From positions 2,910,001 through 2,942,000 of the forward strand of contig NZ_CP074694.1 in the NCBI RefSeq assembly GCF_018398935.1: a stretch of 32,000 bases of DNA, read 5' to 3'. Below, in pieces: positions 5,810 through 31,999 of the stretch (positions within the stretch are counted from its first letter, which is position 1; each line of letters begins with the position of its first letter). The position numbers and the translations under genes are program-made. The notes under the pieces were generated by a model. The model was given only the letters and a program-made list of their open reading frames with translations. It was not told where the DNA came from and ran no database searches. Source of the stretch: Telmatocola sphagniphila (GTDB lineage: Bacteria; Planctomycetota; Planctomycetia; Gemmatales; Gemmataceae).

Positions 5810-6931
5810 TTACTTCGTTTTCGGCTTGCAGTAACTCAGGGCATTTAGCACATATCCCGTCACGAGAGCCGGGTCGCCTTCCATGAAGCGATCGCTTTCG
5901 TTGGTCCAACTGCCATCTGGCTTTTGTCGCTTGGCGAAGGCTTCAATCAGCTCTTTTCGCCAGTCATGCTTTATGCCCTTGGCGTCGGTTATTGTATCGA
6001 TCTCCATAACCGCCAGCGTCTTGGCCATGGTGTGATAGTAGTAATACAGGCCGCGCAAAGGAGTCTCCTTCGGCATCCCGGGATGCACGTCCACCGAGTA
6101 ATTCATGCTGATCCACTCGAGCGCCTTCTTGTAACGCAGGTCGTCCTTGGAAACACCGCAGTAAACCATGCTTTTGATACCCGCGTAAGTCATGCTGGCA
6201 TACCCGGCCATGGGATCCTTCAGGTTATCCTTCTTGGGATCGTTCCCGGGTACACCGTAAATGAAGCTGCCGTCGTTGATTTTGCCGGCCCAGGGTCGGT
6301 CGTTGTATTCTGATTTCAGGTTCTGGCAGCGACTGACGAAGATCATCGCTTTCTGCAGAGACGGATCGTCTTTGGGCACGCCGGCGTCGTGGAGTGCATC
6401 CAGGAAAAACTGGGTATTCGACAGGTCGGGACGCGATTTGCCATCGTAGCCGATACCGCCGTATTCGCCATCGCTTTTCTTTTTGTCGGAAGCTTCATCG
6501 AATTGCAACTGCTTCAGAAACTTAACGGCATCTCCCACCACGGCCTTGTATTTATCGTTCTGATTGGCCGCCTGCAGGGCCATCACATTGACGCAGGTGA
6601 TGTAATTCGAGAGTTGGACGTTGGAACCTGGTCCGGCGATGTGCCCTTCCTTGGTGTTCACCAGGGATTCGATGTATTTCAAGCCTTTGATGGTCGCCTC
6701 GTCGCTGACCTTGGCTCCTCCCGATTTCACCAGTCCGGTAATGACGATACCCGTCACCCCGTTCTTAAACCGGGCCCCGCCCCAACTGCCATCCGGATTC
6801 TGACTCTTTTTGATGTAAGCTGTGGCCGAATCCACCAGTTTATGCCACTCCGCCGTGGTATCTTGAGCTCGAAGTGCTGAAGTAGCAAAGAAACAAGCAA
6901 ATAGTAAACCCAGCCCTCGTATCTTTCGCAT
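5810..6931 (-). CDS. exported prenyltransferase/squalene-cyclase-repeat (alpha/alpha-toroid) protein, paralog 2
   Basis: Collinear with paralog 1 along its full length, with very long identical blocks such as FVSRCQNLKSEYNDRPWAGKINDGSFIY. Strong SD AGGAGG lies 7 nt upstream of the ATG at 6931, followed by signal peptide MRKIRGLGLLFACFFATSALRA. Confidence 0.8.
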   Translation of the reverse strand: MRKIRGLGLLFACFFATSALRAQDTTAEWHKLVDSATAYIKKSQNPDGSWGGARFKNGVTGIVITGLVKSGGAKVSDEATIKGLKYIESLVNTKEGHIAGPGSNVQLSNYITCVNVMALQAANQNDKYKAVVGDAVKFLKQLQFDEASDKKKSDGEYGGIGYDGKSRPDLSNTQFFLDALHDAGVPKDDPSLQKAMIFVSRCQNLKSEYNDRPWAGKINDGSFIYGVPGNDPKKDNLKDPMAGYASMTYAGIKSMVYCGVSKDDLRYKKALEWISMNYSVDVHPGMPKETPLRGLYYYYHTMAKTLAVMEIDTITDAKGIKHDWRKELIEAFAKRQKPDGSWTNESDRFMEGDPALVTGYVLNALSYCKPKTK

Positions 6932-7115: not shown

Positions 7116-8804
7116 ATGGAGGCAAGTAGAGAAATGATGGCGGTTACTGACGAGCACACTCCCGTTTCCTCGAGCTACCTGAAGCGGATTCCTCAGTTTT
7201 GGGCCAATTCCCTCTTTCCAGAGAAGTCCGCAGCGACTGACTCGACTTCCATCCGCTGGCGTCATCTCCTGTTGCTAATCTTCCTGCCCGCGTTGCTGCT
7301 CTACCCCACAAGAAATTTCCTGCTCCTGGAACCCGATGAGGGGCGTTATGCGGAAATTGCCCGGGAAATGATGGTATCCGGTAGTTGGGTCGTGCCCACA
7401 CTGCAAGGGGAACCGTATCTCGACAAGCCGCCGCTTTTTTACTGGCTCGTGAAAATCAGCTTTCAGCTTTTCGGAGTCTCTGATGCAACCGCTCGATTGG
7501 TCCCTGCCCTGGCGGTTCATCTCACCATTCTGGCTCTCTACCTAATCGGAAGAAGAAGCCTTGGTGAGCGCTCCGCTTTATTTTCAGCACTCACTTTGTG
7601 CATTTTGCCCGGGTTTATGGGGATGGCTCGCCTGTTAATCCTAGATGGCGTACTGACTTTAACTGTCACACTCGAATTACTCTGTCTCTACGAGGCCATC
7701 CGGACTCAGAAACTTCGCCTAGACTGGTGGTACGCCGCGGCCCTGGCAAGTGGACTGGGAATCCTTACCAAAGGACCAATCGCGCTGATGCTAGTCATCC
7801 CGCCGCTGATTGCTCACCGCTGGTTGACGGGACGTCGGCGGAAAGCCAGTGTCATGCACTTACTGGGCTACGGGGCCGTGCTTGCGGCCATCAATCTGCC
7901 CTGGTACTGGGCCATTTACCAAAAGCAGCCGGTGTTTTTGAAGTACTTTTTCTGGGATCACAACGTGATGCGGTTCCTGCAGCCGTTCGATCACCTGCAG
8001 CCGGTATGGTATTACGTCCCCGTCTTTTTCTTGAGTGTACTACCTTGCTTATTCCTAGGTCGATCTTTCATGCGTTGGCTGTTGAATGAATCGAGCGAAG
8101 GAAGATCTCAAGACGTCGGCTTCTGGCTTCTCGCGGGCAGTTGGGCCATTATCTTCTTTTCCATCTCGGGCAGTAAGCTACCTACTTACATTCTCCCGGC
8201 CTTTCCACCTCTGGCCCTGGTGTTCGGAAGTTTTCTGACCCACAGCCGTCGCTGCGAGCAGAGACCAACGCAACTCGGTGGCTTGGCTTTCGCGTGCGTT
8301 CTCTTTCTGGCATTTGCTGTCGCCGTTCCCTTTTACGCTCAGCAGCGTTCGCCGTTAAGAGATCCCGGATTGATGGAACGCGTCTGCAGTGACCCAGAAA
8401 CGCCGATTGTCTGCTTCCCGCGCAACTGCGATTCCGTCTCGTTCTACCTGAATCGAGCTGATTTGATCAGCCTGCGAGGCAAGCAAGCCAACGATCTGTT
8501 GAAAAAGGTTCTGGAAGTTCCGCGAACGGTCGTTCTGTTCACACACGATCATTCGCTGGGAACTTTCGAGCCGATTATGCCGCACGACATTTACCTGGAG
8601 GAATCGATTTCTCTCCGGAAACCCAGGCGAGAGCAGAATATCATCGACCGGGTGATCGGAGCCAACCCCTGGGGACTCTGCGACATCGCTGTGGTCAAGC
8701 ACAAGCGCTGGGGCCCGGACCTGTCAGCCCCCCACGCTGTTCAGAGCGCCCAGGTAGATCCCCGCCAGGTTCATAATCATGAAGATCATGATTATCGCGA
8801 CTAG
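7116..8804 (+). CDS. GT39/GT83-type membrane glycosyltransferase (ArnT / PMT-like, polyprenyl-phosphate-sugar dependent)
   Basis: 562 aa and polytopic. The first periplasmic loop motif EPDEGRYAEIAREM and LDKPPLFYW are typical of the ArnT/PMT family. Exact start is uncertain. The 3' end overlaps the convergent gene by 81 nt. Confidence 0.8.
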   Translation: MEASREMMAVTDEHTPVSSSYLKRIPQFWANSLFPEKSAATDSTSIRWRHLLLLIFLPALLLYPTRNFLLLEPDEGRYAEIAREMMVSGSWVVPTLQGEPYLDKPPLFYWLVKISFQLFGVSDATARLVPALAVHLTILALYLIGRRSLGERSALFSALTLCILPGFMGMARLLILDGVLTLTVTLELLCLYEAIRTQKLRLDWWYAAALASGLGILTKGPIALMLVIPPLIAHRWLTGRRRKASVMHLLGYGAVLAAINLPWYWAIYQKQPVFLKYFFWDHNVMRFLQPFDHLQPVWYYVPVFFLSVLPCLFLGRSFMRWLLNESSEGRSQDVGFWLLAGSWAIIFFSISGSKLPTYILPAFPPLALVFGSFLTHSRRCEQRPTQLGGLAFACVLFLAFAVAVPFYAQQRSPLRDPGLMERVCSDPETPIVCFPRNCDSVSFYLNRADLISLRGKQANDLLKKVLEVPRTVVLFTHDHSLGTFEPIMPHDIYLEESISLRKPRREQNIIDRVIGANPWGLCDIAVVKHKRWGPDLSAPHAVQSAQVDPRQVHNHEDHDYRD

Positions 8805-28072: not shown

Positions 28073-29536
28073 TTAAGCCAGCTCTTTCTCCGGTACCCAG
28101 ATCCCGTGAAAGCCGTAAGGTACCCGCACAGGTAGCATCACCCGAGCCACTGGCTCTTTCATGTTCCGGGCATCGACGATCAGCAACTCGCTTTTATTTG
28201 ACGCTTTGTCGTACACGTAGGTCATCAAATAGCCCTCATCCTCCGATTTCGCGGACGCGCGTGCTACAAAAACGGCCTCCCCGCAGAATTGCCCATCACC
28301 TAACTTGTGGCTTTCGGCCGATTTCTTGGTGAAATCGTGCTTGCGAATCTCCGTGGCAAATTCGCCTCCCCCCGAAGCCGTGTAGCCAAACCGAGCCGAC
28401 TTACCGATGAAGGACTCATTGATGCGCGGCATCTCGCTCGTGTAATCATCCAGAATTTCTTCGGAAACTTTGCCGTTCTGGAAATTAAATTTCCAGCAAT
28501 AGAGAACCGGATTTAGAGCCTCCGACTTGGCGTTGTCACTCAGTTCCAGGGCCCCAGGGAACGCCGGGTAACGGCAGCCGATCAGAACGACGGAATCCCC
28601 TTCCTCGTAGGCATTCAGCGAGTGAAACATGAAACCGGTTTTGGCTTCGAACCACTTCACGGGAGTATCGGGCTTGGAATTTCGGGGTAAAAAACCGAAG
28701 CGGGAAGGCTGATCTTTATCGAAGTGCCAGGGCGATTTACCGACGAAGGCCCGTTCCATCGAGAAGATCTGCGGGAAGTCGAAGAAAATCGCGTACTTTT
28801 TGGTGATGGCGAAATCGTGCATCATCACCGGATGCTTCAACTCGATTTTTCGGGTATCGGTCAAGACACCTTTTGCATCGATGTGATAATAGTAAGCCGC
28901 ATTTTTCGTCGTGTAGCAGAAGCCGAGCAACTCGCCGGTTTCCGGATCGACCTTGGGATGGGCCGTCATCGGACCTTCGAGTTTAGCGGCAAAATCGTAC
29001 TCGCCGACGGTCGCCAGATCGGGAAGGTGAATCTCGTGCGGCAAACCCGCCTCGTACAAGGCCAAACACTTTCCCGCATGGCGCACCAGAGCCGTGTTAG
29101 CGGCATTTTTAAATGGATTCTGCCCGACCAGCACTTTCTTCATGTCCGGGCGTTCCAACATGCTGGAATAGACCTGCTTGCCTTCTTTGTGCTCGAGTTT
29201 CCAGCCTTCCGTTTGGATGTAGCGATTGCGATAGCTCGCCTGGCCCTCGCACAGATGCACCCCATGGAGCATTCCATCCCCTTCGAACCAGTGGTAGGCT
29301 CCCTTGGGATCGAATTGGGGATTGGGTCCGTTGCGGACATACAGGCCGTTCAAATCTTTGGGTAGCGAACCGATGACTTTCAGTTTCTCGGCGGTGACTT
29401 CCTCACGAACCGGACCAAAATTGCCTAGCAGATAGGGATTTTTGGGCTTTATATCTTCCGCGGCAAGATTCGAAAAACCACCGAGGGCTACGGCACTTGT
29501 GGAGGCATGCAGAAAATGTCGTCGGTCGAGTTTCAT
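28073..29536 (-). CDS. carotenoid/apocarotenoid (stilbene-type) cleavage oxygenase with a Tat signal
   Basis: 487 aa. Twin-arginine leader MKLDRRHFLHASTSAVALGG. All four His-ligand blocks of the RPE65/CCO family are present: TAHPKVDP, MMHDFAIT, MFHSLNAYEE and FHGIWV. Confidence 0.9.
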   Translation of the reverse strand: MKLDRRHFLHASTSAVALGGFSNLAAEDIKPKNPYLLGNFGPVREEVTAEKLKVIGSLPKDLNGLYVRNGPNPQFDPKGAYHWFEGDGMLHGVHLCEGQASYRNRYIQTEGWKLEHKEGKQVYSSMLERPDMKKVLVGQNPFKNAANTALVRHAGKCLALYEAGLPHEIHLPDLATVGEYDFAAKLEGPMTAHPKVDPETGELLGFCYTTKNAAYYYHIDAKGVLTDTRKIELKHPVMMHDFAITKKYAIFFDFPQIFSMERAFVGKSPWHFDKDQPSRFGFLPRNSKPDTPVKWFEAKTGFMFHSLNAYEEGDSVVLIGCRYPAFPGALELSDNAKSEALNPVLYCWKFNFQNGKVSEEILDDYTSEMPRINESFIGKSARFGYTASGGGEFATEIRKHDFTKKSAESHKLGDGQFCGEAVFVARASAKSEDEGYLMTYVYDKASNKSELLIVDARNMKEPVARVMLPVRVPYGFHGIWVPEKELA

Positions 29537-29567
29537 CGGGTGGTCCCTCAGGGGTAGTGGTCATTTT

Positions 29568-29602
29568 TCAGCAATCAGCGGTCAGCCGTCAGCTTTCAGT
29601 CA
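29568..29602 (+). repeat. five tandem heptads TCAGCNN (tcagcaa tcagcgg tcagccg tcagctt tcagtca)
   Basis: Counted directly from the sequence. Confidence 0.9.
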
Positions 29603-29656
29603 GAAATCAAAGTCAGAAAGCGGGCGGATCTTTTTTCTCCATTCGCTGATTGCTGA
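29568..29656. repeat. 13-bp perfect inverted repeat, tcagcaatcagcg (29568-29580) and cgctgattgctga (29644-29656), 63-nt spacer
   Basis: The reverse complement was verified base by base. The right arm is itself 2.5 heptads of GCTGATT. Confidence 0.9.
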
Positions 29657-29765
29657 TTGCTAACTATCGATATGCTAGCCAATTCGTTTGAGAGAGGGAA
29701 ATATTGAATCTGAAAGCAGTCAGCGGTCAGCTTTCAGCTTTCAGTCAGAAATCAAAGTCAGAAAG
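29589..29765 (+). repeat. 32-bp perfect direct repeat tcagctttcagtcagaaatcaaagtcagaaag (29589-29620 and 29734-29765)
   Basis: Verified base by base. The second copy is preceded by heptads tcagcgg tcagctt (29720-29733). Confidence 0.9.
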
Positions 29766-29822
29766 GAGGCATATCGTTTTTCACTATACGCTGACCATTG
29801 GCCCCTGTCACTAACACAAACA

Positions 29823-30019
29823 AAAAAGCCGCTCAGCTCTTTCTCAAGAACCAAACGGTTATAGTTCTTTGTATTACTGATAGCCGATAGCCGATAGCCG
29901 ATAGCTGATCGCTGACCGCTGACCGCTGACCGCTGATCGCTGACCGCTGACCGCTGACCGCTGATCGCTCTCCCCCAAAATGCAAAAAGCCGCTCAGCTC
30001 TTTCTCAAGAACCAAACGG
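29823..30019 (+). repeat. 36-bp perfect direct repeat aaaaagccgctcagctctttctcaagaaccaaacgg (29823-29858 and 29984-30019), period 161 bp, bracketing the heptad array
   Basis: Verified base by base. Each copy is followed about 20 nt later by tact(g)ctgatag heptads. Confidence 0.9.
29877..29969 (+). repeat. 13-unit heptanucleotide tandem array (ctgatag, 3x ccgatag, then [ctgatcg + 3x ctgaccg] x2, then ctgatcg)
   Basis: Counted unit by unit. A 28-bp higher-order period is present at 29905-29932 and 29933-29960. The core GCTGA is the reverse complement of the TCAGC heptads at 29568-29602 and 29720-29747. Confidence 0.95.
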
Positions 30020-30048
30020 CTGAAGCTCACTTTACTGCTGATAGCTGA

Positions 30049-30873
30049 TTAAGGAATCATAAACGCCAGAGCCAAAGCAATCCCGCTCTCGGCCAAGATT
30101 CCCGTGACCGTGGCCCCCTGTTGGAACAGGATGTAAGGCACCTGATCTCCCGGCTGACACTGAGGCGAGCACTCCTGGCAGAAGGGCCGGGAAGCCGCGT
30201 GATATGGGAAGAGCAGCGTATCCTTATAGAAGTAACTCAACGTCACGAATGGCTGAATGAAGCCCAGGTCCCAGCCGTAGCGTTCGGCATTCTTGTCTTC
30301 GAAAAGCAATTTGCCGTGGCAGACATAATGCGGTTCGGCAATCATCTGCGATTTATTGTAAACACGAGCCAGAAACGCTTTGTCGCTCAAGGTAGGCTGC
30401 GAAGGGAAATTCTCCATCAGCATCTGTTCGTTTTTGATGCGTTTCTCAAGAGCTTTCTCCGATTCAAATCGGTACAACTCTTCCGTTTTCGGGAGATCCG
30501 TTTTCACCACATAAGTGTTGGCCGGGTCCTGAACTTTGGGATCCTCTTTCTTCGGATCGTCCTTTTTGTTCTGAACGAGCTGCGAAGGCACGGCCACCAC
30601 AGGCACGTATTTCGGCGCCTGGGTATAGGCCGGGATGGTAATCGCGGAGTTATTCGGCACGGTGGGAGCGGGAACCGCTTCCGTGGGAATCGTCTGCACG
30701 GAACTGGTATTCGCGGGCTTCTTCAACTGCAGGGTCTGGCCCCGAAGCAGTGTATAATCCCCGGCCTTCGGCGCGGGGATCGACAGCGGATCGGGAGCCT
30801 GAGCCCGAACCGACTCTCCGGCGAACAGACTGGCTATAACGGCCAGGCTATAGGCCATCTTTCGAATTGGCAT
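30049..30873 (-). CDS. exported hypothetical protein (Pro/Val-rich N-terminal half, conserved-looking Cys-containing C-terminal half, C-terminal hydrophobic tail)
   Basis: I re-start the 324-aa ORF-track frame at the ATG at 30873, which gives signal peptide [26 protein letters not shown]. Upstream codons overlap guaB. No family was recognised. The start choice (30873 versus 30858) is uncertain. Confidence 0.5.
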
Positions 30874-31999
30874 CTTCCCGGCTGCTGTAGTTGGGCGCTT
30901 CTTGAGTAATAGCGATATCATGCGGATGGCTCTCCTGTACCGATGCCGCGCTGACCTGAATGAATCTCGCATTGTTGCGAAGCTCTTCCAGGTTGCGTGT
31001 GCCGCAATATCCCATGCCGGCACGCAATCCCCCGACCAATTGAAACAGGAACGGCGCCAAATGCCCCTTGTAAGGCACCCGGCCTTCCACCCCTTCGGGC
31101 ACCAGCTTACCGCCGGCTGTCCCTTCTTTGGGAAGCGATTGCTGGTAGCGATCCGAAGATCCTGCCATCATCGCTCCCATCGATCCCATACCCCGATAGA
31201 CCTTGAAGGATCTACCTTTATAGAGAATGGTCTGTCCCGGACTTTCCGCGACTCCCGCGAACAAGCCGCCGATCATAACGCTGTGGGCTCCGGCCGCCAA
31301 GGCCTTGGTTATATCCCCCGAGTATCGGATCCCGCCGTCCGCAATAATCGGTATTCCCGCTCCTTGCAAGCCTTTTACTGCCTGAGAAATCGCGGAAAGT
31401 TGAGGAACCCCCACCCCAGACACAATTCGGGTCGTGCAGATCGAGCCCGGCCCGATCCCCACCTTGATCGCGTCGGCACCGGCATCGAGAAGAGCTTTCG
31501 CCCCTTCCATCGTCGCCACATTGCCTGCAATCACATCAATCCGGCAGCGCTTCTTAATTTCGCGAACCGTTTCGATCACATTTCGCGAATGGCCGTGAGC
31601 CGAATCAACTACCAGAACATCCACACCCGCCTGGATCAGCGAATCGGCCCGCTCGAAATCCTGAACCCCGATCGCCGCCCCCACTCGGAGCCGTCCTCGA
31701 TTGTCCTTACTTCCGTTAGGAAAGTTGAGGATTTTATCGATATCTTTGATCGTAATAAGGCCCTTCAGTCTGTATTCATCGTCTACCAGGAGTAATTTCT
31801 CCACTTTATTTTCCGTCAAAATTCGTTCAGCCGCTTCAAGCGTTGTATTTTCCGGGGCCGTGACCAGATTGGTCTTGGTCATCACCTCTTCGAGTCGTTG
31901 GTTCTGGTCGGATAGGAAGCGCAGGTCGCGCCGGGTGAGTATCCCTTTTAGGTAACCATTGACGGTAATAGGAACGCCGCTGATGTGCTGCTGCTCCAT
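30848..31999 (-). CDS. guaB: IMP dehydrogenase (N-terminus beyond the window end)
   Basis: CBS-pair region, catalytic loop [11 protein letters not shown], and the blocks GGIRYSGD and GSYRGMGS-like ([10 protein letters not shown]). The frame is open to the window edge. Confidence 0.95.

Follow-up and report, generated by a model that had tools for sequence, protein, structure and literature searches.

What occupies the spacer between two neighbouring genes of the planctomycete Telmatocola sphagniphila (Planctomycetota, Gemmataceae; 6.59-Mb genome), and does it act on either of them? The window analysed here is a stretch of 32,000 nucleotides (contig NZ_CP074694.1, positions 2,910,001 to 2,942,000 of the forward strand), and all coordinates below are window positions unless a locus is named. 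In this window a block of 515 nt (29537-30051) runs from the stop codon of geneX, which encodes a protein without assigned function, to the start codon of a carotenoid oxygenase gene, both genes being on the minus strand. Much of the block consists of 7-nt units with the constant core GCTGA, or TCAGC in the opposite sense. The reading that we favour, and to which we give an even chance, is that the block is a terminator-promoter spacer inflated by simple-sequence growth, in which hairpins may have effects at the RNA level.

Terminators, promoter-like site and heptads of the spacer

The predicted working parts of the spacer are as follows.

29977-30021, minus strand: terminator T1 (terminator scan), a stem-loop at 30021-29988 with 15 pairs, several of them G.U, and a GAGA loop, followed by UUUUUGCAUUUU
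29818-29858, minus strand: terminator T2 (terminator scan), a stem-loop at 29858-29829 with 13 pairs, followed by CUUUUUUGUUUG
29783-29811, minus strand: promoter-like site, GTGACA (29811-29806), 17 nt, TATAGT (29788-29783)
29537-29567, minus strand: end of the predicted oxygenase leader (sequence read), 31 nt outside the heptad hairpin, with the Shine-Dalgarno-like word GAGGGA about 10 nt before the AUG at 29536

T1 lies 27 nt past the geneX stop codon, and T2 repeats the hairpin core of T1 exactly. Folding was strand-specific: T1 reached -23.9 kcal/mol (z -4.8) on the minus strand compared with -9.9 kcal/mol (z -0.95) on the plus strand, and T2 -17.4 kcal/mol (z -4.0) compared with -5.8 kcal/mol (z -1.0). 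Both hairpins are stable solely on the minus strand because four stem pairs are G.U. This strand specificity, the GAGA loop and the U-tract lead us to read T1 and T2, which constitute the 36-bp repeat of the block, as the predicted sense-strand intrinsic terminators of the guaB-geneX transcript. As in known intrinsic terminators, they combine a G+C-containing stem of 13-15 pairs, a tetraloop, a U-tract and a site on the sense strand past a stop codon; the likeness is limited to the 36-bp repeat and does not extend to the heptads, and the heptad hairpins of the wider class described below have no U-tracts. Duplication of a segment of roughly 161 bp accounts for the two copies of the terminator. 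The initial annotation had stated that no annotated feature explains the block. This stands for the heptads, but not for the 36-bp repeat, which it had not recognised as a duplicated intrinsic terminator.

The promoter-like site matches 10 of 12 consensus positions, one such site being found where 0.5 are expected, and the promoter consensus is not established for planctomycetes. It would, as a weak prediction, start an oxygenase leader of about 240 nt; part of this promoter-leader stretch is itself duplicated (145 bp). It had been suggested that the heptads form a contingency spacer for the oxygenase promoter, and in its literal form this finds no support in the position of the arrays: none lies between the predicted -35 and -10 hexamers (17-nt spacer, 29789-29805). 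As for a phase-variation layout in general, the arrays lie outside open reading frames (ORFs), the frame of which 7-nt units would break, and none is found in the spacer of the sole promoter-like site. A version of the contingency idea that acts through the leader hairpin, by analogy with hmw1A of H. influenzae (PMC12721329), is possible and is weighed below.

Read in register, the heptads of the block are:

29568-29602: TCAGC-sense heptads, TCAGCAA TCAGCGG TCAGCCG TCAGCTT TCAGTCA
29645-29662: GCTGA-sense heptads, GCTGATT GCTGATT GCTA
29720-29747: TCAGC-sense heptads, TCAGCGG TCAGCTT TCAGCTT TCAGTCA
29876-29969, plus strand: 13-unit array, ACTGATA, GCCGATA x3, (GCTGATC GCTGACC x3) x2, GCTGATC, GCT
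30037-30051, plus strand: two heptads abutting the geneX stop codon, GCTGATA GCTGATT A

Thus TCAGC arms start at 29568 and 29720, and GCTGA arms at 29645, 29877 and 30037. Next to the constant GCTGA core the linkers are AA, GG, CG, TT, TC, CC or TA. The coordinates and counts of the initial annotation all held when re-counted on the window sequence. Tandem Repeats Finder (TRF) returned a period of 7 with 13.3 copies at 29877-29969, together with four shorter period-7 arrays, and the 28-bp higher-order period of the 13-unit array was recovered with its units in register (100% identity, 29904-29969). This array is composed of three four-unit modules followed by GCTGATC GCT, and it reads UCAGCGG/UCAGCGA on a minus-strand transcript. 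The heptads reported to overlap the stop codon of the upstream gene were also seen: they cover the plus-strand TTA at 30049-30051 (TAA on the minus strand), so that the gene-sense order is TAA-UCAGCUA-UCAGCAG.

Matches to GCTGANNGCTGA numbered 16 in the window against 0.06 expected, and 15 of the 16 fell inside 29568-30048. The core in either sense occurs 24 times in the block and 87 times in the other 31.5 kb of the window, where 71 are expected; it is thus not depleted outside the block. The sole GCTGANNGCTGA match elsewhere consists of two TCAGCTT units at 7456-7470, within an ORF for a PMT_2 glycosyltransferase (7116-8804), and is probably due to chance.

Longer repeats are superimposed on the heptads. 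A repeat finder reproduced both perfect direct repeats described earlier (32 bp with a period of 145, 36 bp with a period of 161) and placed them in longer ones: the first repeat is 80 nt long and 86% identical at a spacing of 145, with a perfect 32-nt core, and the second is 66 nt long and 85% identical at a spacing of 161, its first 36 nt being perfect. The perfect 13-nt inverted repeat was likewise recovered (29568-29580 and 29644-29656, 63 nt enclosed). In total the block contains about 27 heptad units plus segmental duplications, which can be described as two modules:

29568-29661: module A, copy 1, a complete heptad hairpin made of TCAGC x4(+1), a loop and GCTGATT x2.5, including the perfect 13-bp inverted repeat and ending 31 nt from the oxygenase start codon
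29715-29794, plus strand: module A, copy 2, with a TCAGC arm at 29720-29747 (three perfect units and one degenerate), the segment TCAGTCAGAAATCAAAGTCAGAAAG common to both copies, and a single GCTGACC at 29790-29796
29823-29888 and 29984-30049: module B, two copies of 66 nt each, the terminator hairpin and then the start of a GCTGA-type array

Module B carries the sequence CCGTTTGGTTCTTGAGAAAGAGCTGAGCGG, and from the sequence its two copies are read as a local segmental duplication.

Followed along the minus strand from the geneX side, the order is therefore the stop codon TAA, two UCAGC heptads, T1, a spacer, thirteen UCAGC-type heptads and T2, then the promoter-like site, the leader of about 240 nt, the last 31 nt with GAGGGA, and the AUG. 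On the same strand the predicted leader reads GCUGA x3-4, then UCAGC x2.5, then GCUGA x4-5. The leader hairpin predicted at 29661-29568 folds at -34.4 kcal/mol on the minus strand (z -3.8) and at -38.2 kcal/mol on the plus strand (z -4.6). Folding of both strands had been proposed as a check by the initial annotation. The whole block was more stable than shuffled sequence on both strands (minus, -224 kcal/mol, z -8.5; plus, z -5.6), but this is not by itself evidence of function, because arrays of complementary heptads are expected to fold well.

Rfam covariance models gave no relevant match at E <= 1 over 29000-30500. A 65-aa ORF that crosses the array was rejected as coding, since its similarity is limited to other translated repeats. 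When such spurious repeat ORFs were compared with a protein collection, two unrelated (TCAGCGG)n ORFs from metagenomes were returned.

Local copies, related genomes and gene context

Modules A and B are each present in exactly two copies, with no other copy in the 32-kb window, and a further 9 kb of Telmatocola sequence on one side contained no arrays. The module A loop and the module B hairpin gave 0 matches in JGI metagenomes, an uninformative result, close relatives being probably absent there.

The earlier suggestion to look for the arrays in related genomes gave a negative answer at the orthologous place. In relatives the guaB-geneX pair is kept, the next gene differs, the oxygenase is not the neighbour and no GCTGA arrays are present at the guaB-geneX loci, which carry plain hairpins instead. 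Such a hairpin lies directly 3' of three geneX homologs: it is followed by a T-tract in one (L128) and by TTTAAG in another (L124), and in the third (L123) it is a perfect palindrome that runs to the contig end. Since relatives carry plain hairpins after geneX, we read the block as a Telmatocola-specific expansion at a synteny break, produced by segmental duplication (periods of 145 and 161 bp) and by growth in 7- and 28-bp steps. Any regulation of the carotenoid oxygenase by the repeats would be recent and Telmatocola-specific, because the repeats are absent from relatives.

The L123 palindrome (1533-1581, about 50 nt, AGCCGGGCTATCGGACTATCAATTTCGAAATTGATAGTCCGATAGCCCGGCT) follows a geneX homolog of 53% identity and contains CTATCGG/CCGATAG, which is the heptad of window 29883-29903.

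The two genes that border the block are:

28073-29536, minus strand: RPE65-family carotenoid oxygenase (E 3.9e-140)
30049-30873, minus strand: geneX, 274-aa protein without assigned function

The oxygenase starts with MKLDRRHFL, read as a twin-arginine N-terminus. The geneX product has a signal-peptide-like N-terminus and no Pfam match. GeneX overlaps the end of guaB (IMPDH; ORF at 30848-31999) by 26 nt, and the neighbours at the locus are guaB, geneX, the oxygenase gene and a gene for a SYLF-domain protein. The guaB-geneX pair recurs in Gemmataceae-like contigs, and two geneX homologs show the same 26-nt overlap with the upstream ORF. This arrangement points to a two-gene unit that is conserved.

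Two independent public k-mer assemblies, from two sequencing runs on the host, match the window exactly up to the repeats and break inside them, their ends falling within the perfect 32-bp and 36-bp repeats (window 29618 and ~29993; contigs L001, L122 and L131). The spacer is consequently missing or split in short-read assemblies. These assemblies support the window sequence but carry no information on length variation. Several contigs of metagenome-assembled genomes in the sample described below also end in heptad arrays (L003, L006, L062).

GCTGA heptads in other phyla and known heptameric repeats

Species genomes were scanned for at least four GCTGANN units, which gave at least 120 loci (L002-L121) in more than 10 phyla. 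The loci are selected by pattern, so that the perfection of the core in one arm is imposed by the search, and genes were called by a crude longest-ORF rule, which inflates closeness to start codons but not to stop codons. All figures for this class, here and where they are used in the next section, are counts among the matches listed.

Acidobacteriota contributed about 43 loci; the others came from Chloroflexota, Planctomycetota, Verrucomicrobiota and other PVC bacteria, Cyanobacteria (Nostoc, Okeania, Amazonocrinis), Bacteroidota, Proteobacteria, Desulfobacterota, Nitrospirota, Gemmatimonadota, Actinobacteriota, Patescibacteria and further phyla. The initial annotation had considered a lineage-specific STRR-like family: likeness to that type of repeat was borne out, whereas lineage specificity was not, the same arrays being listed in more than 10 phyla.

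GCTGA arrays were wholly intergenic in 63% of cases, against 15% of non-ORF sequence (85% lying in called ORFs). A TCAGC arm followed by a GCTGA arm was found for 48 of 138 arrays and the reverse order for 4; examples of such TCAGC-loop-GCTGA hairpins are L054 5835-5892, L008 3069-3140 and L016 1053-1170. Partner arms were bimodal: they either matched at 18 or more of 20 core positions or were at background, the control-side maximum being 15. Cores were 96% conserved beside random linkers, with almost no intermediate states of decay. The linker dinucleotides of paired arms were complementary in about 30% of cases exactly and in 50% with wobble, compared with 42% for the null, and neighbouring units shared their linker in 42% of cases against 9% expected. 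Array borders were sharp (AGCT-n-TCAGC... and ...GCTGA-n-W-GCT). Hairpin loops ranged from 6 to 140 nt (median 38) and were unrelated in sequence. A T-rich tract followed 3 of 30 hairpins, and canonical intrinsic terminators were rejected as an identity for the class on this count.

Arrays that read TCAGC in the sense of a gene started 3-20 nt past its stop codon in 21 of 35 cases, counted among partnerless arrays with a convergent gene end as downstream neighbour. The heptads at the geneX stop match this placement, with a TCAGC-sense array 0-20 nt after the stop codon. No Rfam family overlapped the arrays in 16 class loci.

Period 7 dominated the tandem repeats of these loci, with 418 of 1128 TRF rows, 234 of them non-GCTGA, compared with 68 rows for period 6 and 75 for period 8. 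Heptad arrays of many other cores were present in the same loci, often as inverted pairs. The unselected non-GCTGA period-7 arrays had a copy-number mode of four (two copies, 57; three, 49; four, 79; five, 17). Copy numbers for periods 6, 8 and 9 fell monotonically from two. Most of these cores are of a kind to which the published G-quadruplex account of a four-unit preference cannot apply. The four-unit mode matches the 28-bp superperiod of the Telmatocola block.

Other-core inverted pairs had a 5' arm rich in G and in purines in 15 of 18 cases, a polarity of composition opposite to that of the TCAGC-first pairs (for example TAGGGAG/CTCCCTA, CGGGACA/TGTCCCG and GAAGGAT/ATCCTTC; loci L030 5183-5314 and 7373-7656, L039 2018-2173, L008 6059-6139 and L105 5226-5304). 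A cause of polarity in TGA codons in all three frames was rejected, other-core pairs carrying the stop-containing arm equally often at the 5' side.

Three further loci may be mentioned. Acido-Lenti-1 RNA (RF01687) was matched in two heptad-hairpin loci (L083 6435-6480 and L099 53-98), and in L083 an AGCTTCT x3.6 array (6386-6410) lies 25 nt from the match. In a metagenome contig, an intergenic stretch (L129 400-740) contains CTTTGA x3, GTGACA x5 and GGTTTT x3, followed by some 17 copies of TCAGCGG, a heptad that also occurs in the window; this stretch had been called as a 95-aa 'protein' with a weak match to an antifreeze beta-roll Pfam model.

The block belongs to a class already described in the literature, the over-represented heptameric repeats of intergenic DNA (PMC4692102, PMC4679880, PMC2700814), as indicated by its tandem 7-nt units, non-coding position near ORFs (0 nt from the geneX stop and 31 nt from the oxygenase start), constant core with variable linkers and convergent inverted pairs. 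It is a new core variant of this class in a new phylum and an unusually large example, not a new kind of element. According to the accounts of Mrazek (2007) given in PMC4679880 and PMC4692102, heptanucleotides are the most abundant class of long simple-sequence repeats in the majority of the prokaryotic genomes surveyed, and slippage of the polymerase was put forward as their cause.

The closest known counterparts, which fall within this long-repeat class, are the (GGGANTN)n / GGGGA(C/T)T arrays of Xanthomonas and Nostoc, GGGAATC being a Xanthomonas heptamer of this type. In Xanthomonas, 89-93% of arrays are intergenic, with a mode of four units, conserved and variable positions within the unit, and a mean of 28 nt to the neighbouring ORF; 70 of 186 form convergent inverted pairs, and the arrays are transcribed (Rehm et al., 2015; PMC4692102). 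A G-quadruplex was offered there as the reason for the four-unit preference. Shared with the GCTGA heptads are the 7-nt tandems, the core with variable positions, the intergenic bias, the mode of four, the proportion of about one third in convergent pairs capable of forming stem-loops, the closeness to an ORF and the unassigned function. In contrast, the Telmatocola core GCTGA cannot form a G-quadruplex and its host is a planctomycete; instead of a single 4+4 pair, the locus is a compound of about 27 units and duplications, known from one place.

MacGregor (2015; PMC4679880) reported TAACTGA arrays in marine Beggiatoaceae, Cyanobacteria and Bacteroidetes, placed immediately ahead of start codons. 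In the Beggiatoaceae genome analysed there they are nearly all direct repeats (one is indirect), mostly a few nt from the start codon. They share with the block a heptamer ending in CTGA, an intergenic position and a sporadic spread across phyla. TAACTGA arrays in the forward sense, with stops in all frames, stand shortly upstream of start codons, and the block is alike in that GCUGA x4-5 ends 31 nt before the AUG; unlike them, it has both orientations, and its largest array follows a stop codon. In Geobacter metallireducens, multicopy sites with five MTYCTGA or four GGGACCG heptads were described as putatively regulatory, with no function assigned (Aklujkar et al., 2009; PMC2700814). The short arrays of four to five units and one family with a CTGA core are common ground, whereas the Geobacter families are dispersed in many copies within one genome and the Telmatocola heptads are known from one locus.

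Tandem heptanucleotides in non-coding DNA are also what the block shares with the cyanobacterial STRR. The STRR unit sequences of Mazel et al. 1990 reportedly differ from those of the GCTGA class. STRR are highly repeated in each genome. The GCTGA class is not confined to cyanobacteria, and STRR proper was rejected as an identity for the block, the host being a planctomycete. STRR heptanucleotides of Calothrix PCC 7601 are cited in PMC4692102.

We also considered, tentatively and as an unlikely proposal, that inverted pairs of 4 x 7 heptads, such as (TCAGCNN)~4-loop-(NNGCTGA)~4, are a discrete cross-phylum element rather than random microsatellites. The idea comes from their fixed arm size, sharp AGCT borders, invariant core with unpaired linkers, 48:4 polarity and placement after stop codons. 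If it is true, they would be maintained by some trans-acting factor or generating mechanism, the Telmatocola block would be a locally amplified cluster of such elements, and the four-unit preference would be a general property with a cause other than G-quadruplexes.

Explanations of the block

In the reading of the block as an inflated terminator-promoter spacer, the heptad arrays would owe their origin and growth to replication slippage and to unequal exchange in units of 7 and 28 bp. Any effect that they have would be exerted at the RNA level, complementary arms folding into long interrupted stem-loops at transcript boundaries. The leader hairpin (29661-29568) would form, with its end 31 nt from the oxygenase AUG. 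In any transcript that reads through, the 13-unit UCAGC array might in addition pair with the GCUGA leader arms. Hairpins and doubled terminator together may shield the oxygenase from transcription of guaB-geneX and influence how stable its leader is.

Several points weigh against this. First, promoter, leader and termination are all predicted, and the promoter match is weak (one found for 0.5 expected). Second, in the class the linkers of paired arms are barely complementary and a T-tract is rare (3 of 30), which does not describe optimised stems or canonical terminators, and about two thirds of the arrays are without a partner arm. Third, conserved cores beside free linkers point to a sequence-specific constraint that slippage plus hairpin selection does not explain; the combination of conserved core, free linkers, four units and one polarity is poorly explained by slippage or by simple selection for a hairpin. 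Fourth, the class statistics come from a pattern-selected sample of at least 120 loci, counted among the matches listed, with crude ORF calling. Finally, there is a single heptad locus in about 41 kb of Telmatocola sequence, and a genome-wide family in this organism is unproven.

The alternative that survives best, a real contender although well short of an even chance, is that arrays and duplications are neutral simple-sequence debris, tolerated by-products of slippage in a non-essential spacer without effect on either gene, and that solely the terminator and the promoter matter. Relatives have plain hairpins at the same position and do without arrays, and the downstream neighbour of geneX differs among genomes, which makes the spacer a synteny break; the perfect 28-, 32- and 36-bp repeats point to recent events. 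The sharing of linkers between neighbouring units is what slippage predicts, and Rehm et al. found no function or regulatory role for the Xanthomonas arrays (PMC4692102). It is mainly the regularities of the class that keep us from calling the repeats mere debris: cores that are 96% conserved beside random linkers with almost no intermediate decay, a four-unit mode that was seen for period 7 alone, a polarity of 48 to 4 and sharp AGCT...GCT borders.

Two further explanations are improbable. One is a length rheostat like that of hmw1A, which is the sole heptad array with a worked-out mechanism. In the H. influenzae leader, transcribed (ATCTTTC)n forms a long hairpin that RNase III processes, and a higher repeat number means lower expression (PMC12721329). 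In Telmatocola, slippage would correspondingly shift the number of units in an RNase III-processed leader hairpin, and with it expression across the population. In favour of this, the predicted leader contains a heptad hairpin whose 13-bp core is perfect and which ends 31 nt short of the AUG, and the arrays are perfect enough to slip. However, the 13-unit array, the longest and the most prone to slippage, is located outside the leader, upstream both of T2 and of the predicted promoter. What is shared with hmw1A is a heptad array in a 5' leader that folds into a hairpin, a feature that in Telmatocola is predicted only. In hmw1A the array is single, long and homogeneous, and its pairing partner is a G-rich arm without repeats; the Telmatocola leader arms are short (2.5-5 units) and heterogeneous. 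The genes differ as well, a surface adhesin of a host-adapted pathogen compared with a metabolic oxygenase, not a surface antigen, of a free-living bog bacterium.

The other, to which we accord the same low standing as the rheostat, is a binding array, in which GCTGA/UCAGC, spaced at 7 nt, would be recognised by a DNA- or RNA-binding protein, probably acting as a tetramer or a four-site unit. Across phyla the 2-nt linkers vary freely and are unpaired beside an invariant 5-nt core, arms of four units are preferred, the polarity is fixed, and the array of the block is built of four-unit modules. Proteins of the S1, Csp or CsrA type have been suggested as binders of TAACTGA arrays (MacGregor; PMC4679880), and CTGA is common to TAACTGA, MTYCTGA and NNGCTGA. 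Against such a factor, the same architecture exists with many unrelated cores in the same genomes, so that one factor would be needed for each core. The arrays have no candidate gene linked to them, the rest of the window shows no depletion of GCTGA, and core perfection in one arm is imposed by the search pattern. The specific comparison with iterons made by the initial annotation fails on unit length (7 bp instead of 17-22 bp) and on helical phase, and no replication gene is found among the neighbours. Readings of GCTGA as a Chi-like sequence, a methylation site or a K-turn were considered and dropped.

Small mobile hairpin elements (MITE- or REPIN-like), inserted repeatedly into the spacer, are a very unlikely source. 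Module A resembles a discrete hairpin element and is present twice, hairpins of the class combine a fixed arm size with sharp AGCT borders that are palindromic, and arrays are frequent at contig ends. On the other side, neither module was found a third time in about 41 kb of the genome or in metagenomes, target-site duplications were not seen, the surroundings contain no transposase or RAYT-type gene, and the class hairpin loops, from 6 to 140 nt, are unrelated in sequence. REP and REPIN elements are short extragenic inverted repeats located downstream of genes, often in doublets able to fold into long hairpins (PMC3733652), and the block resembles them in consisting of extragenic inverted repeats after a gene. 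REPs, however, are individual palindromes, imperfect and tagged by GTAG or CGTC; they are associated with RAYT transposases and exist in many near-identical copies (PMC3733652), whereas the arms of the block are internally periodic, no tag or RAYT gene was seen, and copies are not dispersed in the available sequence.

Scarcely credible, finally, is an RNA sponge. In this view the UCAGC array, transcribed at the guaB-geneX 3' end, would pair in trans with the GCUGA arms in the oxygenase leader or would titrate an RNA-binding protein. Complementarity is all that speaks for it: the 13-unit array matches both leader arms in this way and pairs with them in the whole-block fold (-224 kcal/mol, z -8.5). 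The array lies beyond T1, however, and should rarely be transcribed, and the complementarity follows automatically from the shared heptad.

The present analysis separates the predicted working parts of the spacer, a doubled terminator and a probable promoter with its leader, from the repeats. The locus itself is modest, and the heptad-hairpin architecture found across phyla is the more interesting residue. GCTGA-core heptad arrays with a fixed hairpin polarity are spread over at least 10 bacterial phyla, and the four-unit preference described for G-rich heptads also holds for cores that are unable to form quadruplexes. That heptameric repeats are over-represented has been known since 2007, and no explanation has followed; an architecture of four units, a conserved core, free linkers, one polarity and a position after stop codons provides a concrete and testable handle on this question.

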